A stretch of 64,000 nt of DNA from assembly GCA_000091205.1 (NCBI GenBank), contig AP006500.2; one strand, 5' to 3'. Position numbers and translations under genes: made by a program. This stretch comes from Cyanidioschyzon merolae (Eukaryota). Shown in pieces: positions 31,950-58,426 of the stretch; the first letter of the stretch is position 1, and every line of letters starts with the position of its first letter. The notes beneath the pieces were generated by a model. The model was not told the DNA's origin. It did no database searches and worked only from the letters and a program-made list of their open reading frames with translations.

Positions 31950-33830
31950 ATATTCGGAGGTGGTGGCGGCTGCGGCCGCCCGCCGTTGCCAGGATTTCTG
32001 GCGGTACGCCTCCCGGTCTACTTGGACTAGGCACCTGCTGCTGATTTTGTTTTCTGCTTATATGATATCACCTTAAGAGGTTGCCCGACAAAGCTGGCTC
32101 TCATTAGCTCCGGGGGTCGCTTAATCATCAACACGCATCTTTCTATATTGATAGCGGCGTTAAAGTCTCGGTTCACAAACTCTATACGTTGATTGCCGTC
32201 GGTAGTTGTACTCACCAGTGCGAGTAGTCCAGGAACTTTTGCCCTGCTTTCCATTTGCTGTTTGGTCAGCGCTCCGTACTTTTTTATATCCTCAGAGTTC
32301 CACTGGCACTTTTGCATCTCGACCCTTTGGATTGTACACCTCGGCTCGTGGTGTGTATGTATGACGTTCGGAACTCATCTATCGGTATTGTGAGAAAACG
32401 GTGTGCGTACTCGTTGTACGCTCGTGTCGACGGAGCGGGCGTAGACTCTTTTTCGGACGCCCAGTGCCCTGATCCGTACGCTACTATAAGCCTTTGTCTC
32501 TCGTCTTCGTTCAGGGCACTCAACTGGTTGAAAAAGTTGGCAAATGCACGCTGCTTCCCATAGTATAAGTTCATGTGCTGACGAGCCCACCGGGCGGCTT
32601 GGTATACTCCTTTCACAGCTCCTCGTCATGAGCAGCGCGAAGTGGTATGAATTCTCAGAGGGCTCGAAAGTTCGCTCCGCGACTCGTCATTTTGCTGAAC
32701 TCCTCCCTGCTTACATCGAACTTCGGACTGATCTCTTTCATGATGCCGTAAAGGGCTGCGGAGTCGATTGTCACAAAATGTGCATTGATCTCGCATAACG
32801 GAACGACATGGAAGCGCTTACCCGGAAACGCAGCCATTCGTTTCTCCGACTCTTCATTTGCTTGCACACCTGGTTCCATCTCCGCCTTGCGTTCGAGTTC
32901 TCGGTCCAAAAACACGAAAGGGCGCAGGATTAGGCGATAGCATCTTTCTTCATCTTTTTTCAACGCTGGCATCTTTTTGTGCTCAGTTGACAAACCCTAG
33001 GACCGTGCGGCGCTCTTGGATGGCCACATGGAGTAGAGAAGCTTCATTCCTTCTCCTGCGTGACGTCTTCCTGTCGACGAATTCGATCTTCTGTTCATGC
33101 TGGCGATCGTCCGAAATGCCATTGATGATGGTCCGTATCCTTTTGCGAGAGAGGCGCGGGTAGAGTCCAAACATGGAACGTATCATGAAACGTTCGAGGT
33201 TCATGTTCAAATGGTTTTTCAGATTCGTGAGACACTTTTTAGACCCGTATTCATACATATTATCGTGACCCCTGTATCGAGTACTGTTGGAGCGGAATTT
33301 GGCGTAATTTTCGTGGAGGCCCTGCACTCGCTCATTTCTCCTCGACATTTCATATGTGCCCAGTATCAAGTGGCGAATGAAGGTCTTGTTGAAAAATTCC
33401 TTCGGAATCTCGGTTGTTTCCATATGCGTCACGTCGCGATTCGTCTCCCACACCAAATGCACGAGTCCTGAAGAACCGTTTCGAATGCTACTGGAGTAGG
33501 ACGCCACACGCTTTCTGATAGTCTCGTCCATCCTTGTCTCGTACGGATCCTTGCAATGTCCAAGAAGACAGGGTTTCACTACCATCTCGATGCACTGTCG
33601 TCTTTCTTGCAGCCATTGACGTCTGGCCTCCTGCCTTAGCTTCTTCGTGTTGTCTCGTTCATCCGGGATCGGCTCTGTTTTCGTTTCTTTCCGTCAGCCG
33701 GCGACAGTGGTCCTCCAGGATCCTCCACTTCCATGTCCATAGCTTGCCTTTTTACTTTTGAAAAAGAACGCACTTTAGACACTTCTGCTATAGACCCCGG
33801 AAAATCACTTGAGTAGACTATACTGGAGAT
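31950..33830 (-). mobile_element. old, internally deleted copy (copy 3) of the Fanzor/TnpB-like element
   Basis: Four -strand ORF fragments in different frames (32027..32317, 32284..32616, 32655..32993, 32983..33585) are homologous to the N-terminal, central and C-terminal parts of the nuclease in copies 1/2. RuvC-III 'FVNRDFNAAINIERC' and 'IPIDEFRTSYIH' are present. The RuvC-I region is deleted. Flanks show diverged homology to the copy-1 termini. Confidence 0.55.
32027..33585 (-). pseudogene. TnpB/Fanzor-like RuvC nuclease gene remnant (frameshifts plus ~250-aa internal deletion)
   Basis: see mobile_element 31950..33830. The N-terminal 200-aa ORF is ~50% identical to ORFs 49441..49707 and 48676..49398 of copy 1. 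Confidence 0.55.
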
Positions 33831-43324: not shown

Positions 43325-46300
43325 GTGTCGTTCGCGGTGGCAATGGCGTTCGTTACTTTCGGGGTCGTGTCTGGAGGCACCGGGCGGCAACCGCTAGCTG
43401 ACAGGTCACCGGCGTTCTTGAATCAGCACCCAAGAAAGACAAGCCGATCGGTGCGGTGTCGACGGCGAAGATTCTCGCGTAAAGTGTCTCGAAGATGTCT
43501 GCTGAAGCTCTGCAGCGTTGCTGAACGACAGTCATCCGACTCGGTGCGACGAGAGCAGGGACAGAAGCGGGGCAGCAGTAGCAGCGCCAGCAGCCGTGAT
43601 GAGCGCTATGCGCGGAACGCAGCGGAACAGCGCCAGGCAAGCGACTCTGTATCGACGGAGACGCGAGCCCGAGTGTCTCGAGCGCTCCTACAGGGCGCGC
43701 AGGGGGTGGGCCTCGGCCTCTACTGGATTGCTCGGCAAGCGGTGCGTGTATGTGTGCCGATGGCTCGCTCGGCGTTTAGCCAGCTGTCAACGCTTGTGCA
43801 AGACCATTCCAGTCGCGCGTTCACCTCAGTGGGGGTCCAATCACAGCCAGAACCGCATCATAAGCCGTACGTTGCATCTGAAGCGGACGAGGCAGCGCGG
43901 GCGCGGCCTAACGACACAGCCGTTGGTGCGGATCGTGCTCAGCGGCGATCTAATCATAAGAAACGGGGGCCACGTTCAGGTCCACCATCGGGAGCGAATG
44001 CTCCAGAGCAAGCAGACGAGATGTCAGCTCGACTGCGGAGAAAGTACCTTCGATCGTTTGGGAGCATTCCGGAAGTTGTACTCTTTGACCTTGTCGCCGA
44101 ATGTGAAATGCGAAAGCAATTTGCGCTACCAGAGGAGACTCCATCAAATATGTCGCTTTTAGGGCAGCGAGCCTGCTATATCCCGTATGAGCTGCAGCGC
44201 ATTATTTTCGACGAAATTTTGACGCCAGATTTTGCCGCCTCTGACGCTGACCGCGATCTGTTTCAGAGCAGCAATACATCCATTCCGCTCGGCGCCAAAC
44301 ACACGTTGCGAGCTACAGACGGCTCAGCGGCGTCCACCCCGAGAGCACCCGAGGTCGCTGTGCCGGTTCCCGTTCATATCATGGATTCGCTGGTGGCGGC
44401 TGTGGCACCCTGGAGCGCCGGCACTGGGAGTCCGGGGAGCGCACCAAAGGCGGCAAATTCGCCGAATGATTGGAGTCAAACTGCGACAGCGCCTCGAGTC
44501 GGGGTCCAGGGCGAGTCGCCGGCATCTACTTCCAACCTGGACGATATGGTACCTGCAGCAGCAGCAGCAGCGGCAGCAGCAGCAGGGCAAGTATCCGTGG
44601 ATTCTTCCGCCCGCAGGGGCAGCATGCTGTACATCCCGATATCGGCGCTCGGGAGCTTGTGGCAAGCCATCTCGGCAATGAGTGCGGGCGGACGCAAACG
44701 GCGCGAGGAGGCGCAACGTATTCGTACGTACTCGAATGCCGCCGACGCTATGGCTCGCGAGGATGCCGTTATGGCGGGTCTCGCTGGCGCAGACGGTGGA
44801 AGCACCATGGCCTCGGCATTTGCAACAGCGAGCGCCATTATGGCGAGCACACCGACGCGATCGCCATCGATACCCGTGCAGGGCGCCGAGGCTGGAACTA
44901 CCGCTAGTACGCGCGAAACGGAACAGAAGGCCTCGCGTCCAACAAATGGATCCGTGGAATCAATCGAGGTATTGAGCAGACCGCAGGCATCGGCTGCCAA
45001 CTTGGGCAATCAGCAGAAGCGAGATCGCACGGAGTCGAAAGAGGGGACGGGTGCGAAGCAGAGCGCACCAGTGAACCCGTCATCAGCGTCTGCTGCATCC
45101 GCTGCAGCTACCAGTACAGAAGTAGCTGCAGCGGATGCAGCAGAAAGTCCTCTGTCGAAAGACAAGACGAGAAACTGGTGGTCGACGCTTTTCTCGTTTA
45201 CTTGGCCACGCCCGCGGAACGCTGTCGACTCGGGATCTGCGACTGCGACTAACTCGGAGGATCATGCAATTGAATCCATCCAGCGCCTGTTGCTTTCACG
45301 ACATTACGGGGCAGGCGCTGGCCATGGCCCTGTGGATGCTGCCGTCTTCGATGAGCTCGTCGATCGAGTGGAGCAGCTGACGCTTCGCGCTGCAGCAGAA
45401 GCGGCCATGGCGATTCGCACGCGAAAACAAGCCATTGCATTTCTGGAAGAGGTAGGTGTGGCACCGTTGTTGAATGCACTGAGCATGACGGACTCGCTGC
45501 AGCTCTCGAGGCCGGATGCTGGACGCCGCAGGAACAGCAACAGCAACACCAACCTAGACGATGAAACCGCATCACAGAGAAAGCGCCCACAACAAGAACA
45601 GCAACGTGAAGCCGCCTTCACGGTATCCCTAGCTGTGGCTGCACTCGCAAATCTGACCAACGTCTTGCCTCGCTGCAAACCGCAAATCCTTCGTTATCCA
45701 GGCCTCTTGGATGGTCTGTTGCGTATCTTGGAAGCACCGGTAGCCGGAGAGTCATGGGAGATGCAAGGCAAGTGGAGCGCATGTATGCTCATCGGCACCC
45801 TGATGATGGATGCTGCCACGAGCGATCGTGCCCTCTTCTTCCGGAATCGTCGACTGGTTCGCGTGCTCGAGTCCATGGCAGGCGGCACACGGGTCGGCTA
45901 CCCGGAGGATGTTGCACGGGCATCGCGTCGGGCGCTCGCTTGTCTGGGCGTGCATCACTGGAGGCCGCGCGTTCGAGGCCAGCGCGGTTTGCGCATCCTT
46001 GCACTTGACGGAGGTGGCACTCGGGCGCTCATGTCTTTCGAGATTCTGAAGCACCTAACCAAATTGACTGGCTGCCAGTTGCATGAAATGTTCGATATCA
46101 TTTGCGGAACCTCGACGGGGGCGATTATTGCCGGCTCGTTGGGGATTCGCCGGCGTCCAGTTGAGGAGGTCGAGAGCCTCTACCGTGAACTAATCGGCAA
46201 AATTTTCGCCAAAAAGCTGAGCAGTGCGCCGAAAATGTTGCTCACTCGGGCCTACTACGATACGGACTTGTTTGAGAGCATTCTGAAACGTGAGGCAGGC

Positions 46301-47197
46301 TCATTGCGGATGATTGATTCCACCATGGACCGGGATATGAACTACGTGTTCTTCGTAAGCTCCGTGATGAATCGACGTCCGCACCAGCTGCATCTGTTTC
46401 GAAACTATTGCCACGCACCAGGCCAGGAGTCCAGATACCCAGGGACTGTGGATGCAACCCTATGGCAGGGTATGCGGGCCTCGTCGGCGGCTCCGACGTT
46501 TTTTTCGGAAATTGTATTGAATGGACTCATTCACGCAGATGGAGCTCTGGTTGCGAATAATCCCGCAGGGGTGGCAGCGCACGAGGCACGCCGCTTGTTC
46601 CCGAATGTGCCTATCGAGCTCTTGGTGAGCGTGGGAACCGGAGTCGCCGAGAAGACTAGCCCTCTATCGCCGCTAAGCACCACGGACAGTGGTGTGTCCA
46701 CGGGCACCAGAGAGGGCAGCGGTGGCGACGGCGGTGCCTCAACCGAGAGCGAAGCTGCGAGTGCGCTTCGTGAAGCTGCCACGACTTCGGCGATTTCCGC
46801 AAGTGGTGGTGATGGTGCAGATGCCGCAGCTGCTGCCGTCCCGAGCCGAATGAGCTGGAACGACGTGATCAACTCGATTGTGGACTCTGCAGTCGGCACC
46901 GAGAGTGTGCATCACATCCTGGAAGATGTGTTGCCTGCAGATGTTTATTTTCGATGCAATCCAGAGATCAGCGTGATGAATATTGATGAGGTTCGTCCCG
47001 GCAAGCTCATGGAAATGATTCGATGTGCACAGGACTACATCGCCGCGAATGCTGATCGCTTTGATGAGTTAGCGGCACGGCTGCGCCCGAAAATGCCCCA
47101 GAATTTACTAGAACGGATCCGTTTTGAGCTGCAACAGGAGGCCAGTCTGATTCTCGACTTGGACGATGCACGGGAAGGGCCACTTCCTGCGCTTTAG
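43325..47197 (+). CDS. patatin-like phospholipase with an N-terminal armadillo-like helical region (iPLA2/PLAI-like)
   Basis: 1290-aa ORF; patatin motifs 'ILALDGGGTRALMSFEILKHL' (GGGxR), 'ICGTSTGAIIAG' (GxSxG) and 'DGALVANNP' (DGA/G dyad); preceded by ARM-like repeats ('LANLTNVLPRCKPQILRYPGLLDGLLRILE'). Confidence 0.75.
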   Translation: MSFAVAMAFVTFGVVSGGTGRQPLADRSPAFLNQHPRKTSRSVRCRRRRFSRKVSRRCLLKLCSVAERQSSDSVRREQGQKRGSSSSASSRDERYARNAAEQRQASDSVSTETRARVSRALLQGAQGVGLGLYWIARQAVRVCVPMARSAFSQLSTLVQDHSSRAFTSVGVQSQPEPHHKPYVASEADEAARARPNDTAVGADRAQRRSNHKKRGPRSGPPSGANAPEQADEMSARLRRKYLRSFGSIPEVVLFDLVAECEMRKQFALPEETPSNMSLLGQRACYIPYELQRIIFDEILTPDFAASDADRDLFQSSNTSIPLGAKHTLRATDGSAASTPRAPEVAVPVPVHIMDSLVAAVAPWSAGTGSPGSAPKAANSPNDWSQTATAPRVGVQGESPASTSNLDDMVPAAAAAAAAAAGQVSVDSSARRGSMLYIPISALGSLWQAISAMSAGGRKRREEAQRIRTYSNAADAMAREDAVMAGLAGADGGSTMASAFATASAIMASTPTRSPSIPVQGAEAGTTASTRETEQKASRPTNGSVESIEVLSRPQASAANLGNQQKRDRTESKEGTGAKQSAPVNPSSASAASAAATSTEVAAADAAESPLSKDKTRNWWSTLFSFTWPRPRNAVDSGSATATNSEDHAIESIQRLLLSRHYGAGAGHGPVDAAVFDELVDRVEQLTLRAAAEAAMAIRTRKQAIAFLEEVGVAPLLNALSMTDSLQLSRPDAGRRRNSNSNTNLDDETASQRKRPQQEQQREAAFTVSLAVAALANLTNVLPRCKPQILRYPGLLDGLLRILEAPVAGESWEMQGKWSACMLIGTLMMDAATSDRALFFRNRRLVRVLESMAGGTRVGYPEDVARASRRALACLGVHHWRPRVRGQRGLRILALDGGGTRALMSFEILKHLTKLTGCQLHEMFDIICGTSTGAIIAGSLGIRRRPVEEVESLYRELIGKIFAKKLSSAPKMLLTRAYYDTDLFESILKREAGSLRMIDSTMDRDMNYVFFVSSVMNRRPHQLHLFRNYCHAPGQESRYPGTVDATLWQGMRASSAAPTFFSEIVLNGLIHADGALVANNPAGVAAHEARRLFPNVPIELLVSVGTGVAEKTSPLSPLSTTDSGVSTGTREGSGGDGGASTESEAASALREAATTSAISASGGDGADAAAAAVPSRMSWNDVINSIVDSAVGTESVHHILEDVLPADVYFRCNPEISVMNIDEVRPGKLMEMIRCAQDYIAANADRFDELAARLRPKMPQNLLERIRFELQQEASLILDLDDAREGPLPAL

Positions 47198-47228
47198 GGG
47201 ATGGACAAGCCACCACCGCCGTTCTAAG

Positions 47229-47396
47229 TCGAACGACGCCAACGGTATACAGTAGTGGCGACCGGCGCCCTAGACGAAACGTCTCCAACTGACGTGCAGA
47301 CGCCTCCCCGCCTTTTTGGACCGGCCACCTACTACTGCTTCCAACTTTTTCTCGTATAGTTCGACTTTGAGAGGTTGTCCAATAAAGTTCCCTCTT
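47229..47396 (-). ncRNA. candidate omegaRNA scaffold region (overlaps the 3' end of the ancestral nuclease ORF plus a short flank)
   Basis: The 3'-terminal block is far better conserved between copies 1 and 2 than the upstream coding sequence. It ends in a hairpin with an 8-bp perfect stem in the solo copy at 54379-54401. The position matches where TnpB/Fanzor omegaRNAs are encoded. No direct evidence of transcription. Confidence 0.25.
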
Positions 47397-49707
47397 CATG
47401 ACTTTGGAGGTGTTTTCTCCAGCACCGCACATCTCCGTATATTGATAGCGGCATTAAAGTCTCGGTTCACAAATTCCATACGTTTCTTCCCATTGGTAGT
47501 TGTACTTACTAGTGCACCTAGTCCTCGCACTTTCGCTCTACTTTCCATTTGCTCCTCCGTCAGCGGTCCATACTTTTTCATATCCTCAGGGCTCCTCTGG
47601 AAATTTTCCATATCCACTCTCTGAAGTGTACAACCCAGCTCATGGTGTGTGCAGGACGTTCGAAACTCATCTACAGGTATTGTAACAAAACGCCTTGCGC
47701 ACTCCTTGTACGTTCTTGTCGTTGGAGCTGGCGTAGTTCCTTTTTGGGTCTTCCAGCGCCCTGCTCCATACGCTATTACGAGCCTTTGAGTCTTGTCTTC
47801 TTTGAGGGCGCTCAACTTATTGAAAAAGTTCGCGAATGCCCGCTGCGTCCCACCGAATAGATTCATTCGCAAACGAGCCCACCGGGGCTTGATATACCCC
47901 TCCCACAGCGCATCCCAATGGGCAACACGAACTTCCATGAATTTCCGAAAAGCTTCAAAGTCCGCGCCTCGGCTCGTCACCTCGCTCGAAGATTCCAGGT
48001 GATCCTTCATTCCTGCATTCCATGCAGCAATTTTCTTCCTTGCATTCATTATACCGGACTCTCGATAGTATCTTGCTCTCGAGAACCTCAACAAATGCAT
48101 GTCTTTCAGACGTAAGTTGCCGTCAATGCAATCTTCCGCACACTTTGGTGCTGCGATGGTAATGATATTCGTGTTCCCAGGGTCCATGCCAATGACAAAG
48201 TCGTTATCCTGCACTTTCTGCGCCGCAGGACCCGCCTCGTTCTTTTCTTCATGCTTCGTCGCGTCAAGCATAAAGGCGTTATCCTGCACCTCCTGCATCA
48301 CAGGATCCGCCTCCTTCCCAACTTCATCCTTCGTCACATCAACGATAAAGTCGTTACCCTCAATCTCCTGCGCCACAGGATGCTCCTCTTTGTTTTCTTC
48401 ATGCTTCGCCGCGTCAACGACAAGCTTGTTATCCTCCACCTCCTGCGTCGCAGGTTCCGCCTCCTTCTCATCTCCATCCTTCGCCACGTCAACGAGAAAG
48501 TCATTATCCTCCACCTCCTGCGTCGCAGGATACACCTCTTTGTTTTCTTGATCCTTCGTCACGGGTGCAGCCGAGTGAGGGACTGGCCGATCTCTCTTCA
48601 ACCGCCGATAGTGTGCACACAAGGCTACTCCATCGGTTTCGATCATCCCAGTGAACAACTTTTGCTTGCTCACTCTCAGGCGTTTGAAATCGAAGATGTT
48701 CTTCCAGTACGTCTTCCGGTTTTCACCGGAGAATTCCTCCCTGCTGACACTGAACCCCGGACTGATCTCCTTAAAGATGCCGTAAAGGACGCCGGAGTCG
48801 ATAGTCTCAAAACTTGAATTGATCCTGGACAACGGATCAGCGTGGGAGCGATTCTCCAGAAGCGCAGCCTTCCCTCTCTCCGACTATTCGTTTTTTCCAC
48901 ACCCGGCTCCATGTCGGCCTTGCGTCCGTGCTTTCGGTTCAGAAACATGAAACAGCGCAGGATTAGTTGATAAAATCTCTCTTCGTGTTTTTTCATATTA
49001 GGTAATTTTCCTGTTGGACTGAGTAGCCCCAAGACCGCACGGTGCTCTTGAATAGTCGCGCGGATTACGGAAGCTCCATTTGTGCTCCTGCGTGATGTCT
49101 TCTTATCGACAAATTCGATCTCATCTTCATACTTTCGATCGTTCGTGATGCCGTTGATCATCCCCCATATTCCTTTGCGAGAGATGCCCGGGTAGAGTGC
49201 AAACACGGCGCATATCATGAAACGTTCCGGGTACATAGTTAAATGGTTCTTCAGATTCGTGAGGTACTTCTTCGGCCCGTAGGCGTAAATACACGAGTCA
49301 ACCCTGTATCGGGTACGCTCGAAGCGGTATTCGGCGTAGTTTTCGTGGAGAGCGTGCACTAGCACATTTTCCTTCCGCGCTTCCCCTGTACCAAGCATCA
49401 GGTGACGAATAAAGGTCTTGTGGAAAAACTCGTCTGGAATCTAGACCGTTTCCATGTGCGCCACATCGCGATACATCTCCCTCGCCAAATGCATCAGTCC
49501 TGACGACGTCTTGACAATACTCTTGGAGTACGAGTCGACACGTTTTTTGATAGCGTCCCGCAACTTTTCCTTGTAGGGATGCTTGATATGTCCAAGAAGA
49601 AAGGTTTTCACCACCATCTCGTCGTACAGCCGTCTTCCTTGCCGCCTTCGACGTAGGGCCTTACCGTTTCGGTCCTTCTTCTCTTCTTTTTGTTCTGGAC
49701 TCGGCAC
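47396..49707 (-). pseudogene. TnpB/Fanzor-like RNA-guided-nuclease-family gene (RuvC-I, Zn-finger-like, RuvC-III), disrupted
   Basis: Three collinear -strand ORFs (49441..49707, 48676..49398, 47396..48832). RuvC-I '[21 protein letters not shown]', 'LVIAYGAGRW', 'VTIPVDEFRTSCTHHELGC' and C-terminal 'FVNRDFNAAINIRRC' match the TnpB D...E/ZnF...DxNAAxNI layout. In-frame TAG at 49441-49443 ('METV*IPDEF' where copy 3 has 'METTEIPKEF'). Frameshift near 48700-48830, where copy 3 reads straight through. Stop is premature relative to copies 2 and 3. Confidence 0.7.
48197..48565. repeat. ~72-bp minisatellite (5 units) inside the copy-1 nuclease ORF, encoding 24-aa repeats directly N-terminal to RuvC-I
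   Basis: Units 'gtcgttatcctgcacNtcctgcgccgcaggacccgcctc...catgcttcgtcgcgtcaagcataaag' repeat head to tail. Protein repeats '[25 protein letters not shown]' etc. The last unit becomes '[14 protein letters not shown]'. Copy 2 has a single unit. Confidence 0.75.
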
Positions 49708-50151
49708 TATATTTGGGTTTTTTTGGCAGCCGGCGACACTGGGCCTCCAGGATCGTCGACTTGCTATTTACTAGCTTTTCCGTTTTTTAGTTTTTTTTTG
49801 AAAAAGAACACTCTTTGAACGCTTCTTTTATATTCTACGAATAAACACTTGACTAGACTTGTTTGAGGGCTGGAACAAAAACGAACTGAAAGACTGTACC
49901 TGGCTAAGACCTCAACAGAAAACCAACTTTTTACAGCTGAACACCACGCTATTGATACCAATCGAGTTTCCCTTTAACGGCGACGCGGCGCTTTCGGAAC
50001 TCGATCCGCCGCATCTCCCGGCTGGATCCTGCTGCGGTTCAGAGACCGCAAGTCGAAAAGTGTGTGGCTGTAGTTGAAGGCAAATATGGTGCACCACGCG
50101 GCAGTAAACAACAGAAATAGGTTGTGAGACGCGACAGTCGTGCGATGAAGT

Positions 50152-50943
50152 GTGTGGCGGCTTCTGCAGCGCTCGTCGTCAGCCACTCTTTTAAAACATA
50201 TTGTCGTTCTTCTATCAACTGTGTTTGCAGAAGACTCTACTGTAAAACGTTTGACCAGGTGTGATTCGAAACGATCGGAAATGTTGCGCAAAGTATCCTT
50301 AGTGTTCCTGGTGACCCTGCTCTACGTGCTCGCTGCAGTTGTGTCGAAGCCGGTGCGTGGGCTCTCTCAGAGCAGCACGATTGCCGAGCTGCTCGCTGCG
50401 TCTCCAAGCTCGTACCTGCAGAACGCGCTCACAAGCGGTGCGTTTCTCGTGAATAACTCAGCCGGAAGTATTCAGTTGTTTGACGTTACACAGAACTCGT
50501 TGTTAACGAGCGTGGGCCTCTCTACCCTGATATCCACGTTGAACAAGTGCGGTATCCAGGAGCTGCACGTGCAGACGGACGCGATCGAGTACGCGTACGT
50601 TGTTGAGGGTGAGGGCACTTTCACGCTGTGGTCGTCTAACGGCTCGGTGGTATTGTTGAAGGCCCCCTTGAAGCCTGGCGACGTGGCGATTATTCCAGCC
50701 GGCTGGCCGCACTTTTTCACCGGGTCCGAGACGTCCACGACGCCGCTGGTCTTTGTCTCGACATTCACCAGCGGAGAGCCACAGGTTTATTTCCTGGCTG
50801 GTGCTGGGAATCTATTCGCGAACGTGCCATCCGAGGTCGGTAGCAGTCTGTTTAATGTTACCGCGTCGCAGTACGGATCGTTTTTCAGAGCGGAATCGAC
50901 TGTGGGTGTCGTCTTTAATGAGACCTGTTTGGGGAATGCCTGA
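50152..50943 (+). CDS. secreted cupin (germin-like) protein, tentative; probable start at the Met near 50282 (signal peptide 'MLRKVSLVFLVTLLYVLAAVVS')
   Basis: 263-aa ORF; 'PGDVAIIPAGWPHFF' resembles germin motif 2 (PxGxxHxxxN-like) and 'ELHVQTDAIEYAYVVEGEG' motif 1; N-glycosylation-like sites; lies between the two young Fanzor-like elements. Confidence 0.4.
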   Translation: MWRLLQRSSSATLLKHIVVLLSTVFAEDSTVKRLTRCDSKRSEMLRKVSLVFLVTLLYVLAAVVSKPVRGLSQSSTIAELLAASPSSYLQNALTSGAFLVNNSAGSIQLFDVTQNSLLTSVGLSTLISTLNKCGIQELHVQTDAIEYAYVVEGEGTFTLWSSNGSVVLLKAPLKPGDVAIIPAGWPHFFTGSETSTTPLVFVSTFTSGEPQVYFLAGAGNLFANVPSEVGSSLFNVTASQYGSFFRAESTVGVVFNETCLGNA

Positions 50944-51094
50944 ACGATTTGAAATCGGGAGATATCAGTGCTGCTTGCGAATGCTGTCGGGGATGTAGCT
51001 CTGCTGCGCTCCGTTGGTTACATGGACAGGAAATTTGCGGATTCTTAAAAGATAGATACGTGACGCCGCTGCTAGCGAGCCCCTTTCAAAACAA

Positions 51095-53523
51095 AAACGC
51101 TGCCGCTATCAGTACAAAAGTGGCTACCAACGCGCCCTAGACGAAACGTCTCCAACGGACGTGCAGACGCTTCCCAGTCTTTTTGGACCGGCCACCTACT
51201 ACTGCTTCCAACTTTTTCTCGTATAGTTCGACTTTGAGAGGTTGTCCAACAAAGTTCTCTCGTGTCCACTCTGGAGGTCTTTTCTCCAGCATCGCACATC
51301 TCCGTATATTGATTGCAGCGTTAAAGTCTCGGTTCACGAATTCCATACGTTTCTTGCCATCGTTCGTTGTACTCACCAGTGCGAGTAATCCCCGAACTTT
51401 CGCCCTCCTTTCCATTTGCTCTTCCGTCAGCGGTCCGTACTTTATTATATACTCAGGGCTCCTCCGACGCTTTTCCATCTCAACCCTTTGAAGTGTGCAC
51501 CCCAGTTCATGGTGTGTAAACGATGTTCGGAACTCATCTATTCGTATCGTAACGAAACGCCTTGCGCACTCCTTGTACGTTCTTGTCGTTGGAACTGGCG
51601 TGCTCCCTTTTCCGGGTACCCAGAGCCCTGCTCCATACGCTACTACAAGCCATTGGCTCGTCCCCTTTGAGGGTGCCCGACTCATTGAAAAAGTTGGCAA
51701 ATGCACGCTGTTTTCCGCAGTACAGATTCATATGCAGACGAGCCCACCTGAGCTTCGCGTACTCTTCACACACCTCCTCGTCATGAGAAACGCGAATTTT
51801 CATGAATTTCGGAAGAAAAAAAGAAAGTTCAATCGACGGCTCGTCACGTGCCTGATCGCTTCCAGATTCTCCTTCACTCTTGCGTTCCATTTCTCACTTT
51901 GATTCCTCGCATTCATCATTGCTTGTTCTCTGTACTAACTCTCTCTCGAGAACTTTAAACGACGCATGTCGCTCTGGCATAAGTTGTCGTCAGCGCCATC
52001 TTCCAAACGTTTGGGTGCTACGATGGTTATTACATTCGTGGTCCCGAGGTTAAGGCCGACGACAAGATCGTTATCCTGGGGATTATACGTGCCAGGGCCC
52101 GTCTTCTTGTGTTCGTGCTTCGGCAAGGGCGACAATGTAGATGAGGTAGGACGATCTGCCTTCAAGCGCTGATAGTGTACACATATGGATTTCCCATTGT
52201 AATCGATCGTCCCCGTGAATGCCATTTTTTGCTCGTTTTGAGGCTCTTGAAATCGAAGATATTCTTCCAGTACGTCTTCCGGTTTTCACCGGAGAATTCC
52301 TCCCTGCTGACACTGAACACCGGACTGATCTCCTTAAAGATGCCGTAAAGGACGCCGGAGTCGATAGTCACAAAACTTGAATTGATCCTGGACAACGGAT
52401 CAGCGTGGGAGCGATTCTCCAGAAGCGCAGCCTTCCCTCTCTCCGACTATTCGTTTTTTCCACACCCGGCTCCATGTCGGCCTTGCGTCCGTGCTTTCGG
52501 TTCAGAAACATGAAACAGCGCAGGATTAGTTGATAAAATCTCTCTTCGTCTTTTTTCAAATTAGGTAATTTTCCTGTTGGACTGAGTAGCCCCAAGACCG
52601 CACGGTGCTCTTGAATAGTCGCGCGGATTACGGAAGCTCCATTTGTGCTCCTGCGTGACGCCTACTTGTCGACAAATTCGATCTCATCTTCATGCATGCG
52701 ATCGTTCGTGATGCCATTGATAATTGCCCAGAATCCTTTGCGAGAGATGCCCGGGTAGAGTGCAAACACGGCGCATATCATGAAACGTTCCGGGTACATA
52801 GTTAAATGGTTCTTCAGATTCGTGAGGTACTTCTTCGGCCCGTAGGCGTAAATACACGAGTCAACCCTGTATCGGGTACGCTCGAAGCGGTATTCGGCGT
52901 AGTTTTCGTGGAGAGCGTGCACTAGCACATTTTCCTTCCGCGCTTCCCCTGTACCAAGCATCAGGTGACGAATAAAGGTCTTGTGGAAAAACTCGTCTGG
53001 AATCTAGACCGTTTCCATGTGCGCCACATCGCGATACATCTCCCTCGCCAAATGCATCAGTCCTGACGACGTCTTGACAATACTCTTGGAGTACGAGTCG
53101 ACACGTTTTTTGATAGCGTCCCGCAACTTTTCCTTGTAGGGATGCTTGATATGTCCAAGAAGAAAGGTTTTCACCACCATCTCGTCGTACAGCCGTCTTC
53201 CTTGCCGCCTTCGACGTAGGGCCTTACCGTTTCGGTCCTTCTTCTCTTCTTTTTGTTCTGGACTCGGCACTATATTTGGGTTTTTTTGGCAGCCGGCGAC
53301 ACTGGGCCTCCAGGATCGTCGACTTGCTATTTACTAGCTTTTCCGTTTTTTAGTTTTTTTTTGAAGACGGACGCGTTTCTTACGTGTCTACTATAAACCA
53401 CGAAAAACACTTGACTAGATATGTTTGAGGTGTGAAACAAAAACGAACTGAAAGACTGTACTTGGCTACGACCTGAACGGAAATCCAACTTTTTTCGGTA
53501 GAACAACACGCTACTGATCAGGA
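51095..53523 (-). mobile_element. Fanzor/TnpB-like element, copy 2 (~2.4 kb), more decayed
   Basis: Six -strand ORF fragments in shifting frames (51137..51706, 51534..51890, 51935..52225, 52162..52395, 52368..52595, 52662..52961, 53004..53270). 5' half nearly identical to copy 1 (ORF 53004..53270 = ORF 49441..49707, 88/88 aa). 3' half about 80-85% identical, with the full-length C-terminus '...FVNRDFNAAINIRRCAMLEKRPPEWTRENFVGQPLKV...RFV'. Confidence 0.65.
51137..53270 (-). pseudogene. TnpB/Fanzor-like nuclease gene, copy 2, with multiple frameshifts and the same in-frame TAG as copy 1
   Basis: RuvC-I 'DNDLVVGLNLGTTNVITIVAP', 'LVVAYGAGLW', 'IRIDEFRTSFTHHELGC', 'NRDFNAAINI'. TAG at 53004-53006 identical to copy 1. 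Confidence 0.65.
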
Positions 53524-54333
53524 TGGCGTTCCCCTTCGACGAAGGCATGCGCATCGTGTCAGTTGACTGACTGATCTCCCAGTTGCGCTCATTTAGCGCA
53601 ATGCATCCACTGCGCGCGACGCTACTCCGATCGATGAAGGACACGTGTCCGATACCCCGCCTTGGCACATGCGTGTTCGCATCCCACTGCAGCCAAAATA
53701 AAGTATCGTAGATCGCAAACTCACGTAGAATGATCTCTTGCTACAGGCTCTGTCGCTGGTGCCCATTGCAGTACCGCCCTGACATACGTGGAGATGTAGG
53801 GGCCTGGCACGATACCTCGCGATGCTTCTAACAAAAGCATCGCGTTCTCTGCGGCTTACACTTGTGTGGATAAGGTACACAACACTGTACTCAATAGAAA
53901 TTTCGTTAATTTTATTGATCGTATATAAACAAGACACGGAATGATTCCTGACCAAGGATATTCGTTTAATCAATATGCTTGTTATGCATGCCGCACCGAC
54001 ACTGGAATAAGGACCTGAACTGAAATTTGCATCTATCCGGCGTCATGGGCTGGAACTGATACCCGTTCAAGTCATTGCCATCCTGCCGTGGTTGTCCAAG
54101 TAATGGTGCCTGCTTCGTCCTCCGGATCCGGCGATCTTGGCAGAGGCAGAGCACGTAGGTAGCGTCCAAGTCTGCCACGAGGTTTGAGCCTTGCATCTCG
54201 CCTGGCACGATCGTGGCACTTGACAAAAGCGCATACTGTATTCTGGTCTACTCTATCAGATTATTTTCAAGAGCCTAACCCGTACATCGAGCCCGAACGA
54301 GGCACCCCTGGAAAGAAACGCCTTTCGAAAGTC

Positions 54334-54400
54334 GAACGGCGCCAGCGGTGTACAGTAGTGGCGAGTGGCCCGCCCTAGAAATGACGTCTGCAACTGACGT
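54334..54400. repeat. solo 3'-terminal fragment of the Fanzor-like element (~65 bp) with a perfect hairpin
   Basis: 'agtcgaacggcgccagcggtgtacagtagtggcgagtggcccgccctagaaatgacgtctgcaactgacgtgcagacgc' aligns to 47229-47290 and 51095-51170; stem 'cgtctgca'/'tgcagacg' with a 7-nt loop; homology stops abruptly after the hairpin. Confidence 0.5.
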
Positions 54401-54793
54401 GCAGACGCATCCAAAATAAGATACCACCTCAGGAAATTTCCTTATACCTCCTCTACGGTATTCGTCGGCGAGCTACGTGGAAGTTCGTCTACGATTGTTG
54501 TGATCTCTGAGCGCAGCACTGCGGAACCCTTGGCACCAATTACTGATGAGGTTGTTGATGGGAAGCATAGGAGTTCTGTCTAGTTTCTGAAAAAGACACT
54601 GAGCGCTTGTGCTAGATGTGCTCAACGCTAGACAGTCTACGGGAGATTTAGGTCGGACTCTGGACAATTGACGGGCGATCACTCGTGCAGCTACGCAAAA
54701 GAAGTTTTTTGCTGGATACGCACACCTATGCGAGCGATTCTAGCCGGTGACGTGATCGGCAGCTTTGCACCGGAGAAAATCTAATCCAAGAAA

Positions 54794-55869
54794 ATGCAAG
54801 CCCTATTCGTTTCTGTTCCGCTGTACCAGGAAAGACATATTGTTTGCGCGCGCGCTGCAACTCGAGCACCGTTCCCGCTGTGTACCGAACATGACAGGTG
54901 CTTCGCAGCTCGATACCGTCACCGCTGTCACCATCCGCTGCCCGTGGGGGTGCAGCGTTCGCCTGTAGTGCGCCGGCATCGTATGCCGCATCTTCGTATG
55001 GGCCCGAAACAGTCGCAGATCGCCGTGATCACTGGCTCGTCCTCTGGGGTCGGTCTGTATGCAGCTCGCGCTCTGATCAACAAGGGCAACTGGAACATCG
55101 TCATGGCATGTCGTGACGTCGACCGGGCGGAACGTGCAGCAAACAGCGTGAACCTTCCAAAGGACGCCTATACAGTGCTGCATTGTGATCTGGCAGATTT
55201 CGCCTCTGTGTTGAAGTTTGTGAGAGCGCTATCGAGTGTGGCGCGCATCGATCACCTGGATGCCCTGATCTGCAATGCCGCAATATGGCATCCGCAGGAC
55301 AAGAAACCGCGTTTCACGGTGGGCGGCATCGAGGAAACCATGCAGGTTTGCCATCTGAGCCATTTGCTTCTCTGTGGGGAGCTGTTGCCGAAGCTGAAAA
55401 AATCGCGCAGGCGCATTGTGTTTCTGACGACTCAGACACACTCGCCGAATTCGTTGCCGGGAAAGATCCCCCGCTGGCTCGTCTCGGGGATTCGTCTAGT
55501 CTAGCCGCGGGGCTTGGTCCGCAGACGACGGACATGGTAGAAAGTGGCCCGTTTGAGCCCACAAAAGCTTTCAAAGACGCCAAAGCCGAGAACGTGTTGA
55601 CAATGAAGGCGCTCAGTGATCGATACGGCCGCGACGGGGTGACCTCTGTGGCGATTTTCCCGGGATGTGTCGCCGACAGCAACCTCTTCCGCGAAAAGCG
55701 TGGCTGGTTCCGCTACGTATTCTTCCCGATTCTTCAGAAGTACATCACTCGGCAATACTTTCCCAATGATGAGGCCGGACGCCGTGTAGCCGAAATGGCG
55801 ACCCAGGGACAGTTCTCGGACTCGGGCTCGTATTATCAGTGGCGTGGCAAATATACGGATGGGGGATAG
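54794..55869 (+). CDS. por: light-dependent NADPH:protochlorophyllide oxidoreductase (POR), with a +1/-1 frameshift at a C5 run near 55475-55480
   Basis: ORFs 54794..55504 and 55285..55869 together align to POR from memory: 'IAVITGSSSGVGLYAARAL..WNIVMACRDVDRAERAA..LPKDAYTVLHCDLADFASV', 'ICNAAIWHPQDKKPRFT', 'YKDAKAENVLTMKALSDRY', 'FPGCVADSNLFREKRGWFRYVFFPILQKYITRQYFPNDEAGRRVAEM..SDSGSYYQW'. Frames switch exactly inside 'aaagatcccccgctg'. Confidence 0.75.
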
Positions 55870-56350
55870 AAGACGAAACCGCAGGTTATTGAACCAACGT
55901 ACGAAATCGACAAGGCAGATCAGCTTTACGAACTGAGTCTTGATCTGATCGACCAGGCTTTACGGAGGCGAGGCCTCAAGTCGACTACCTTGGTCCCTGT
56001 CTAAGGTTTGTTAGTGATGAATATGGGATGCGCCTTCGAAGCGCAGACCGCTGCGTCAAGGACGCATGTGGGAGCAACAGCGTAACGATGAAACGGCAAC
56101 CCACTGTTACGATCGGATAGTGATCGGGTGAAAGGGCACTCCTCCTGATGTGGAGAACCAAAATTGCTTCGCAAGTCATAAAGCGTACTGCAGTAGTGAT
56201 TAATATAGCTATAGCTATGACCTACTTCGCATCGAATGCGCCAGAGAATGCTAACTGCGGTCGTTCAAGAGGGCAGAGCGCGTTTATTTGGGTAATCTGT
56301 AACTCTTTTTGCCATAAAGGATACGGCAATAGAGGCGAACTTGCAGACGT

Positions 56351-57670
56351 TTGAACAATATGTGGGTATTCGATATCAAACTGGGTCAACGGGCATGGAT
56401 TAATGGAAGCTCGGTAGTGAATACTCCAGCAAGATATGGAGCATTGAGCGAGTCAGGCCCGAATAGTGTACCAAGTACTCGCTATGGATCAGCTTTCTGG
56501 AACATCAGATGGACCGATTCGATCATATTTGTTGGAAATGGATACATAAACACGAGCGGCAGTTACTTTCTCAATGATGTGTTTGCATTGAGGAAAGCAT
56601 TTCCTACTCCAACACCAAAACCTACGCGGACACCCACCCCCATCTGCACCGATGAGCTCTGCGGATCTCCAGGACAGTGCATCAACCAGGACGCTTACGA
56701 GCGAGTCGGGTGCTGCTTCAACGCCCAGACAAACGCGTGCACCCTGAAGAGCGTCTCAGCGGCGTGAAGCGCTGTTCCAGTGACGCAGCGCGTCACCTGC
56801 GGTTGGAGCTACATCTACCCTGATGAGTGCACTGCGATACCGGGATGCTGCTGGCAGCCCACAGCGAACGGCATCCTCGCGCCCTGGTGCTACTACGACA
56901 TCGACCATGCACCCCAGGCTTCTGTAGCGCTGCAGGAGGTGCAGGCACCGGTTCCCGTCTGCCCGTCACCGGGAGCGCAGCGCCAGCCGTGCGGCAACGC
57001 GGGTATCAACCAGTTTACCTGGTATGCCCAGGGCTGCTGCTACGACTCGCAGGCGCAGAACCAGTGGGTGCAGAACGGCAAGCAGCAGAGCGACTTTGCG
57101 TCGAACCCGTACTGCTTCCAGCCCGAGAAGACGTGCGCGGTGGGCGAGCTTGAGCGCCAGCCGCGCACGAACGCGCTGAATCAGAACCAGCAGCTGACCA
57201 ACAATAACATCAACAACAATAACCAGTTTGTGCGTCTGCTGAACACGCTCCAGTGCGGAGAGCAGCACGGGACGCAGCGCACGAGCTACGCGCCGTAGCA
57301 GTGTCTGGAGGCTGGTTGCTGCCTGGGGCTCGGCAACGAGTGCTTCCAGCCGGTTACTGAGTACGTGTGCCAGACCTACGGGTACGTCTCGAACTCGCTG
57401 AGCGGCACGACCGGCAACGTGTCGAACTCGACGTATATTCCGTGCGGCCCGGAGTGCTGCAACGCCGAGATAGAGAACTGTACGTACAACCCGTTCAGCA
57501 ACAGCAAGAACCTGCGACAACAGCAGCAGCAGCAACAGGTGCTGTTGCCGTCATTCTGTGTATGCAAGGACCCTACAAAGCAGTGCGGGACGTACCTGAT
57601 CCCTTCGGACAACCTTGTGAACAAGGTGCGTTCCTGCCGCTCTGATCAGGAGTGCATCAGCAACGAGTGA
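56351..57670 (+). CDS. secreted Cys-rich protein with several trefoil (P-type)-like domains; exon/frame structure unresolved (three ORFs: 56351..56767, 56780..57298, 57365..57670)
   Basis: Repeated motifs 'CxxxPGQCINQDAYERVGCCFNAQTNAC', 'CTAIPGCCWQPTANGILAPWCYY', 'CGNAGINQFTWYAQGCCYDSQAQNQWV...NPYCFQP' match the trefoil pattern (R..CG..gIt...C...GCCfd...pWCF.p). Gln/Asn-rich linker. Confidence 0.4.
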
Positions 57671-58426
57671 TTGTTGATTAGTCCTACTCCGACTCCGAGT
57701 GCCGTTATTTCGACTGGAACTGCGTCTCCAGGTGCGTCGGTATTGGTGTCGACCTCGACGCGTGCCTCAGCAAGTGCTTCAGTATGAACCACTGCGTTGA
57801 CGCCAGCTATCTGTACGGCCCCGCGCGCGTACACAGAACCAAAATATGTTTCAGTTATTGATATACTCATTCCATGAGGATCTTGGTTGTGCAATATAGT
57901 TCGCACGTGCATGCACGCAACCTTTCAGTCCGGGTTGGGGGCCCATAATTTAATGTTGAGGGTATCTGGACACCAAACATACCCCTAGACGGGATGTCAA
58001 CAAATATACAGATGGCGTGCGGAAAGAGGGAGTTTTTCGTACTGGGGCACAGCAGGCCGGGTCCGAATGTGCGACGGGCATGCTATTAGACCTTTTGGGT
58101 GTTTGGACTCTGCATGTGTATCTGAAACACGACTGCGGCGTAGACGACTATCTTGCATTGCCATTACGAGAGCGCCATCATGAAACTCAGTAGCAGGCGC
58201 TGCAAAATATCTTTGGCCGTTTATTATAGAAATGTCGTGTTGTGGGAGCGCCGTGCGCAGATCTGCGTCATTCAGACGGCGGTGCTTGACGCGCTCCCGT
58301 GCTGCTTACCTCAGAATACTTCGTGGAGCCTGGTGGTGGTAAGGACGGAGACAACAGTGACAACAGTACCAGCAGCTGGAGGCTCTCCTATCCCTGTAGA
58401 TTCTAAGCAACTCGTTTCCCTGGGAG

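Follow-up and report, generated by a model that had tools for sequence, protein, structure and literature searches.

The stretch analysed here (the window) comprises 64,000 nucleotides from chromosome 18 of the red alga Cyanidioschyzon merolae 10D (contig AP006500.2). Positions 47209-47345 on its minus strand certainly belong to a known Fanzor1 transposon family, of whose copy 1 they are the 3'-terminal module. An earlier reading of the letters alone (the original prediction) had seen in this region the candidate scaffold of an omegaRNA, the guide RNA of TnpB and Fanzor nucleases, and had stressed the close identity of two neighbouring copies. On balance, the module appears to encode, or to have encoded in active master copies, such a scaffold. 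This reading is based on the location of the module, the strand-specific stability of its predicted fold, a non-coding island complementary to the open reading frame (ORF), a retained terminal hairpin and covarying relatives; it is not based on the conservation argument. Why copies 1 and 2 are so strikingly identical is a matter separate from the omegaRNA question; gene conversion is the best explanation.

The proposed RNA would be ~130-140 nt long and read from the Fanzor sense strand, starting in the last ~25 codons of the ORF. A long-range helix would pair these codons with a conserved island just past the stop and enclose a hairpin spanning the stop codon. The RNA would close in a terminal hairpin and then run into the flank, which would be the guide for the RuvC nuclease. 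In this model the fold would exist as an RNA, this RNA would be bound by the Fanzor protein and the flank would act as its guide.

Self-comparison of the window resolved four pieces of the element: copy 0, copy 1, copy 2 and a solo 3' end. No inverted repeats were found in the element region by this self-comparison. The ORF lies on the minus strand; in copy 1, the TnpB/Fanzor motifs DPGNTN, VDEFRTSC and NRDFNAAINI are kept, and RuvC and zinc-finger motifs are present. For comparison, 79 loci with relatives were fetched from hot-spring metagenomes, one of which (L003) corresponds to this very region of the genome in an environmental strain. A profile of 42 homologues matched the solved Fanzor1 structures 9cf0 (Parasitella, 6e-17), 8gkh (Spizellomyces, 4e-10) and 9cer (Guillardia, 2e-4). 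These structures were reached only by the profile: neither the window ORF nor an intact relative, each searched singly against the PDB, gave a match, and a Pfam scan of the window ORF fragments and close homologues matched no family. The RuvC triad D421, E592 and D659 was invariant (42/42 homologues), and PF07282 matched in 7 of the 42. The features of a Fanzor1/TnpB nuclease (RuvC D-E-D, zinc-finger/TNB) are hence present at the level of the family, while copy 1 itself is not intact.

The family CMe-1A (Bao & Jurka 2013) has ~150 copies with ~80% identity to a ~3-kb consensus and lacks terminal inverted repeats (TIRs); its 5' 635 bp are common to TE-N2_CMe (PMC3627910). The window element comes from the same genome and fits this family by its C. 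merolae host, Fanzor1 ORF, size, many copies, copy identity and lack of TIRs, the assignment being made via the published description. Pairwise identity among copies was 74-85%, with ~89% to the consensus in the 3' part. Both the described and the observed element are without TIRs or recognisable target-site duplications, and both have a separable 5' part of ~0.6-0.7 kb. CMe-1A is a Fanzor1 (eukaryotic TnpB) element, roughly 3 kb long and TIR-less. The 2013 description was published before omegaRNAs were discovered and mentions neither the 3' module and its fold nor solo modules or conversion tracts (PMC3627910).

Copy 1 is a pseudogene: its ORF is fragmented, carries a premature stop (47396-47398) and contains an expansion of a 75-nt tandem repeat (48190-48564). 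Any present activity of the copy-1 module would therefore need a Fanzor protein in trans.

The module is made up of 24-25 codons at the end of the ancestral ORF, the 55 nt that follow its stop and a tail of 4 nt. After the stop, the family consensus has, in order, GGCG, a variable loop of 5-9 nt, CGCC, the island ACTACTGTACAC, ~8 variable nt, a terminal hairpin (H3) and TT. The consensus terminal hairpin is CGTCGTTCGA-CTT-TCGAACGGCG. Copy 2 belongs to a second subfamily, in which this place is taken by CAACGTTTTTC-TTTT-GAAAGGCGTTG, seven substitutions apart; it again forms a hairpin, with G.U pairs on the sense strand. The two variants (CGUCGUUCGA/UCGAACGGCG and CAACGUUUUUC/GAAAGGCGUUG) are both hairpins of 10-11 bp. 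The end of the element had been placed at 47229; it continues through the terminal hairpin to ~47209-47215, and the earlier boundary was thus ~15-20 nt too far in. The end lies 11-18 nt from the stop of a convergent patatin-like gene (ORF 43325-47197, plus strand). Similarity among copies decays from +2 to ~+13 after ...GGCG. The information content was 1.1-1.75 bits at +1/+2, followed by a weak G/T-rich signal to ~+13 and none beyond.

The location proposed originally was right, since the omegaRNA of Fanzor and TnpB arises from the 3' end of the transposon and may overlap the last codons (PMC10432273). Fanzor1 omegaRNA is transcribed from the 3' inverted repeat and overlaps the last 17 codons in GtFz1 (PMC10432273); the 3'-end location is likewise supported by PMC10530073. 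Fz1 omegaRNAs measure 75-150 nt and carry their guide after the stem-loops (PMC10432273, PMC11423790).

The module of copy 1 folded stably on the sense strand only. For 47200-47345, the predicted free energy was -69.6 kcal/mol on the minus strand (z-score -5.4; none of 200 shuffles was as stable) and -38 kcal/mol on the plus strand (z -0.6). Among 43 overlapping windows along the element, the module was the most stable. For family-wide comparisons, the 3' ends were reduced to 45 copies with a mutual identity of <97%. The mean z was -1.6 on the sense strand (17/45 below -2) and -1.0 on the antisense strand (8/45; Wilcoxon p=0.02).

The predicted structure is built from a long-range helix (H1), an extended hairpin enclosed by it (H2) and H3. 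In H1, GCAGUAGU-A-GGUGG.. pairs with ..CGCCACUACUGU, in the minimum-free-energy as well as in the centroid structure. The 12 core pairs of H1 were kept in 91.7% of cells (38 copies), and one locus (L064) carries a full compensatory change from A-U to C-G. The 3' strand of H1 contains GCCACUACUGUA, a conserved non-coding island: its 16 columns (95-110) have a consensus frequency of 0.82-1.00, compared with 0.47-0.73 in the neighbouring non-coding columns. The subterminal hairpin of the original prediction is present (47280-47302), as is its perfect 8-bp stem in the solo copy, though the latter lies at 54384-54406 and had been placed ~5 nt off. The perfect stem is not the typical form: H2 has a central G.G mismatch in 35 of 38 copies. 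Moreover, this hairpin, real as it is, forms only the inner part of the larger predicted H1/H2 structure.

A covariance model was built from the 38 family copies. It matched the window three times (47213-47345, 51076-51212 and 54315-54445), found no further solo modules in the window and missed the degenerate end of copy 0. Owing to misalignment of the variable loop, RNAalifold recovered hardly any consensus structure from a plain MAFFT alignment of the 45 tails. The coordinates of all features are given in Table 1.

Table 1. Copies, 3' modules, structural elements and identical tracts of the Fanzor1 element in the window
Feature	Position	Strand	Remarks
3' structured module, candidate omegaRNA scaffold	47213-47345	-	covariance model 145.6 bits, full length
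H1, 5' strand	47318-47338	-	GCAGUAGU-A-GGUGGCCGGUCC; within the ancestral ORF, codons EAVVGGRS
H1, 3' strand	47249-47269	-	GGCGCCGGUCGCCACUACUGU; 1-22 nt after the ancestral stop
H2, extended hairpin enclosed by H1	47273-47312	-	78-80% of cells paired; ends at the ancestral stop
Ancestral Fanzor stop TAG	47270-47272	-	aligned with the stop of the copy-2 open frame (51137-51706) and of most copies
H3, terminal hairpin	47217-47238	-	CGUCGUUC-GACUUA-GAACGGCG; last structured element before the flank
Flank 3' of the module	47195-47214	-	would-be guide if the module is an omegaRNA; overlaps the stop of the patatin-like gene
Copy-2 3' module	51076-51212	-	covariance model 118 bits; degraded fold, z -1.2
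Solo 3' module	54315-54445	-	covariance model 63.5 bits, full length; H1 5' strand lost
Copy 0	32006-33819		~74% identical, internal deletion
Copy 1	~47209-49985	-	decayed Fanzor1 element
Decayed Fanzor1 ORF of copy 1	47396-49707	-	fragments 47396-48832, 48676-49398, 49441-49707
Copy 2	~51080-54315	-	open frame 51137-51706 at the 3' end
Identical block, copies 1 and 2	47312-47382 = 51179-51249	-	71 nt
Exact match, copies 1 and 2	49171-49802 = 52734-53365	-	632 nt

The nearest relatives outside Cyanidioschyzon came from saline-lake and other metagenomes (P0114, P0120-P0126; loci L082-L094; 46-55% protein identity). In these loci, intact Fanzor ORFs of 610-731 aa lie downstream of a DDE_3 (Tc1/mariner-type) transposase gene. 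The elements are ~3.4-4 kb long and end in ...GAGTATA (TIRs ending in TATA); a 28-nt TIR was found in L091. Their region from the stop codon to the right end (~190 nt) is structured and covarying: across six lineages, RNAalifold gave 30 pairs, 11 of them with compensatory changes. One 6-bp helix occurs as CCGGCG/CGUCGG, UCGGCG/CGCCGG, GCGGUG/CACCGU and CCAGUG/CACUGG and surrounds a hairpin unrelated in sequence; in a second helix, three double changes fall on one pair. A short alignment places the H1 5' strand against that of the first covarying helix. Both groups are Fanzor1, but the relatives differ from CMe-1A in having the DDE_3 gene and TIRs, in a protein that stops earlier or is without ~16 residues, and in the length of the 3' region. 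The window copies were also considered as Tc1/mariner-borne Fanzor1 themselves and rejected as such: elements of this kind carry a DDE_3 gene and TIRs with TA on either side, and the window copies have no inverted repeats and no Pfam domain matched in the ORF fragments.

Compared with the omegaRNAs of SpuFz1, GtFz1 and PpFz1, the CMe-1A system shares the nuclease family, and its candidate RNA would share the position at the sense-strand 3' end and the overlap with the last codons. The predicted RNA would also have the same size range (75-150 nt) and the same order of stem-loops and flank-derived guide. The known examples (Saito et al. 2023; Xu et al. 2024) end in the TIR of a recognised transposon, whereas CMe-1A ends in a simple hairpin. 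For the predicted long-range helix between the ORF and the 3' untranslated region (UTR), we found no counterpart documented for the known Fanzor1 omegaRNAs. Those RNAs were shown experimentally, while the CMe-1A module is known from sequence and its window copies are pseudogenes.

The omegaRNA of ISDra2 TnpB (reRNA, IS200/IS605) is alike in having a scaffold that takes in the right-end hairpin and overlaps the nuclease ORF at its 3' end, and in that its guide is the DNA beside the right end. IS200/IS605 elements differ in being prokaryotic, in their Y1 TnpA, which uses hairpins at both ends, and in having the target-adjacent motif (TAM) as insertion target. For CMe-1A, with its heterogeneous 5' ends, no TnpA, TAM or left-end rule could be defined. 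The solo module, a 3' end or omegaRNA-like region that lacks a nuclease gene, resembles in this the 'ghost' omegaRNA loci of Spizellomyces punctatus (Saito et al. 2023). It has lost the 5' strand of H1, however, and may be simply a 5'-truncated copy.

The conservation that first drew attention to the block has a different origin. A perfect block shared by copies 1 and 2 does exist; its length is 71 nt instead of the 75 nt claimed, and the string quoted for it has 70 nt (at 47313 and 51180). The surrounding ~140 nt had been given as ~92% identical. We found ~95% for 47270-47388 vs 51137-51255, the copy-2 coordinates having been offset by 13 nt. The local contrast to the adjacent coding sequence is real, with 76-82% measured for the adjacent 3' coding part rather than 80-85%. 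A perfect run of 71 nt in ~80%-identical DNA is far beyond chance. Nevertheless, the 3' block is not the best-conserved part of the element. In their 5' halves, copies 1 and 2 are 98-100% identical over ~1.07 kb (48730-49802 vs 52290-53365), the long exact match (Table 1) included, while their 3' halves are ~78% identical. The stretches between the identical tracts are 55-80% identical. Copies 1 and 2 are clearly mosaics, produced by recombination or conversion between tandem copies.

Within the block, a derived change from TAT to TAC was found in both copies 1 and 2 and in 0 of 43 other copies. The 71-nt core of these two copies is also unusually close to the consensus (identity of 0.972 and 0.986). 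Relative to copy 0, the block is the least conserved part (60-64% identity, vs 74-86% in the coding sequence). The shared derived base together with the other identical tracts makes gene conversion the best explanation of the 'absolutely conserved core', and the alternative that the original prediction had itself named is the one that fits best. The identical block is best explained as a recent gene-conversion tract between tandem copies in the same orientation, 3.9 kb apart.

Across the 45 copies, the block showed no extra conservation. Mean pairwise identity was lower in the block than in the upstream coding sequence at codon position 1 (0.81 vs 0.88, p=0.0002) and at position 2 (0.85 vs 0.90, p=0.004); at position 3, it was 0.78 vs 0.73 (p=0.12). 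Identity to the consensus was 0.888 in the block and 0.895 in the upstream coding sequence (p=0.25), 0.907 in the 71-nt core and 0.70 in the post-stop region. The core is hence no feature of the family and is confined to copies 1 and 2. The original prediction had held that its reading would be refuted if no transcript were found and copies from other loci diverged in the block at the same rate as in the rest of the element. The second half of this is what the 45 copies show, and the argument from conservation fails. What stands of the original proposal is an omegaRNA at the 3' end overlapping the ORF: the location is right, and the stable sense-strand fold fits.

Several further results weigh against an omegaRNA scaffold in this place. 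As the third codon positions above show, conservation at synonymous sites is not significantly higher in the block than outside it, and paired and unpaired third-codon positions did not differ in conservation. For many copies, copy 2 among them (z -1.2), the fold is not significant, and the stability of the copy-1 fold comes partly from a subfamily-specific extension of H1. The check by fold and covariation proposed originally gave a stable and strand-specific predicted fold for copy 1; within-family covariation was not significant: 11 pairs were changed on both sides, compared with 7.9 +/- 1.7 in shuffles, of which 42 of 500 reached as high a value. Within CMe-1A, 81.6% of cells were paired. 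Most helix changes were disruptive, as expected for dead copies, and weak covariation is expected if the differences stem mostly from neutral decay of such copies. Nearly all copies examined are pseudogenes; the best of 76 ends was a 722-aa frame ending in ...NFIG*. An Rfam scan of 44000-58000 (E<=1) gave no match at 47200-47400, 51070-51280 or 54300-54450. With regard to the Tc1/mariner-borne relatives, the CMe-1A covariance model found no match in them, and the whole 3' UTRs of two distant relatives were not unusually stable (z 0.65 and -0.40). That H1 is homologous to their covarying helix is suggested by position and the short alignment only.

In an alternative explanation, the module has no RNA function. 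It would then be ordinary C-terminal coding sequence plus a transposon end, overlain by a conversion tract, with an incidental fold of GC-rich sequence that is rich in Arg and Gly codons and has short repeats. Such an explanation accords with a block conserved family-wide like the rest of the ORF, with the codon periodicity that persists across most of the block, with the lack of significant covariation within the family, with the many copies that lack a significant fold, and with the mosaic structure of copies 1 and 2, including the 632-nt exact match elsewhere and the shared derived base. It leaves unexplained why the island GCCACUACUGUA is exactly complementary to an ORF stretch ~80 nt upstream, why the fold is asymmetric between the strands and why the terminal hairpin was retained in two sequence versions. 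Furthermore, every characterised Fanzor or TnpB requires an omegaRNA encoded at the 3' end (PMC10432273). We regard the absence of any RNA function as unlikely, though it deserves to be taken seriously.

The hairpins and the conserved island could also act at the level of DNA, as a 3' transposition end for an unknown transposase or as a rolling-circle terminator of the kind seen in Helitrons or in the hairpins of IS200/IS605-type elements. The terminal hairpin stands directly at the element boundary and is kept in two variants, the 3' ends are uniform while the 5' regions are heterogeneous, and short tails that recur past the hairpin resemble read-through. An element without TIRs, of unknown mechanism (PMC3627910) and with no inverted repeats in the window region would suit such a signal as well. 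On the other hand, several G.U pairs of the helices would be A.C mismatches on the other strand, the sense fold is the better one, and no transposase ORF was found in the copies (the Pfam scan of the ORF fragments was blank). Helitrons run from 5'-TC to CTRR-3' and have a hairpin 10-12 nt inside the 3' terminus. The 3' end of the element (...GGCGTT) is not of this type. Helitron membership was rejected as the sequence ends in ...UCGAACGGCG-TT without CTRR, no search having been aimed at a RepHel gene. A signal in DNA seems to us rather improbable. It is compatible with an omegaRNA because the right-end hairpin of IS200/IS605 serves both.

In IS200/IS605, the right-end hairpin belongs to the DNA signal and to the omegaRNA alike. 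A stronger version of the omegaRNA reading, namely a live omegaRNA gene whose guide segment takes part in the spread of the element (target choice by the parental guide or co-mobilisation of a guide-length flank), is one way to read the several independent copies, with either hairpin variant, that share the same tail of 12-18 nt and then continue into unique DNA. We consider this version doubtful in the extreme. If true, it would connect, in a new way, a Fanzor guide with the transposition of an element that has neither TIRs nor a transposase. Guide-like matching of the flanks was also looked for, as had been proposed, and was not found: none of the three 20-nt flanks matched elsewhere with <=3 mismatches in the window and 94 loci, the orthologous locus of copy 1 (L003) apart. 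Nothing can be concluded from this, since the empty site is the only place that a TnpB-type guide matches. The least probable alternative is an mRNA 3'-UTR element for 3'-end formation or stability of the Fanzor transcript; a sense-strand-specific structure that spans the stop codon would suit it, but no specific signal was seen, the structure reaches 70 nt into the ORF, and the solo module persists without any ORF.

The result is mainly corrective: an eye-catching conservation is the product of gene conversion, and Fanzor with a 3' omegaRNA is already well known. If confirmed, the omegaRNA would give the single Fanzor family of this red alga, a thermo-acidophile that is amenable to genetics and has a tiny, fully finished genome, its missing RNA partner. 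Together with the solo modules and conversion tracts, the ~150 dated copies would then make it possible to study a guide-RNA gene that evolves while overlapping a nuclease ORF. Such an RNA could also help to explain the persistence of an element without transposase or TIRs, and a Fanzor active at about 42-45 C could be of practical interest.

Two tails of 12-18 nt recur beyond the terminal hairpin, TTTGNTTCCAGGGGYGCG and TTGATGGTGYG. They were found at L007, L028, L043/L054 and window positions 54297-54317, and at L010, L019, L041, L050, L052, L056 and L068. Either hairpin variant can precede them; the DNA beyond them is unique, and they blur the element boundary. They may be an extension of the element, a target preference or a carried-over flank. 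The sequence beyond the recurrent TTCCAGGGG tail was considered as another repeat and rejected, as it is unique DNA.

The solo module, with its perfect 8-bp hairpin, directly adjoins the 5' region of copy 2 (53600-54315, ~0.7 kb), which is probably TE-N2_CMe-like. No Fanzor coding remnant was found by tblastn above 54445, upstream of the module. The same juxtaposition recurs in loci L008, L017, L063 and L033/L040, the upstream piece in L033/L040 being a longer partial Fanzor copy. This recurrence suggests preferential insertion beside an existing 3' end, or tandem arrays. The idea that the solo module is the true 5' terminus (a terminal direct repeat) was rejected as a general rule because one locus has a longer partial Fanzor copy (tandem) and two loci have the same 5' region without the module. 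All aligned copies share the ORF and ~130 nt upstream of it, which are rich in short palindromes such as GCGCTCAGTGAGCGC and GTCAACTGAC. Beyond these ~130 nt, at least three unrelated sequence types were found; the copies are uniform at the 3' end and heterogeneous at the 5' end.

Just upstream of the block, in the codons VLEKRPPE (47405-47423, minus strand), lies a 6-bp hairpin of the form CUGGAG-loop-CUCCAG. The loop varies, the stems hardly do, and the region shows a flat codon periodicity; copy 1 no longer forms the last pair. This hairpin might be part of the same RNA as the module. On the plus strand, opposite the Fanzor C-terminus, an antisense ORF of 102 codons is open in both copies (47316-47624 and 51183-51491) and is probably a by-product of codon usage.

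Three long ORFs of the window were exactly identical to C. merolae 10D proteins (among them CMR487C, a GATA factor). Within the patatin-like gene, a GCN repeat (45089-45144) encodes a poly-alanine run and gave sub-threshold Rfam microRNA matches on both strands, which are a low-complexity artefact. The tandem repeat expansion of the copy-1 ORF consists of five 75-nt units, i.e. acidic repeats of 25 aa, between the N-terminal part and the RuvC-I motif. These repeats are mostly missing in copy 2, and their number varies in the family proteins (P0002, P0003, P0005 and P0034).

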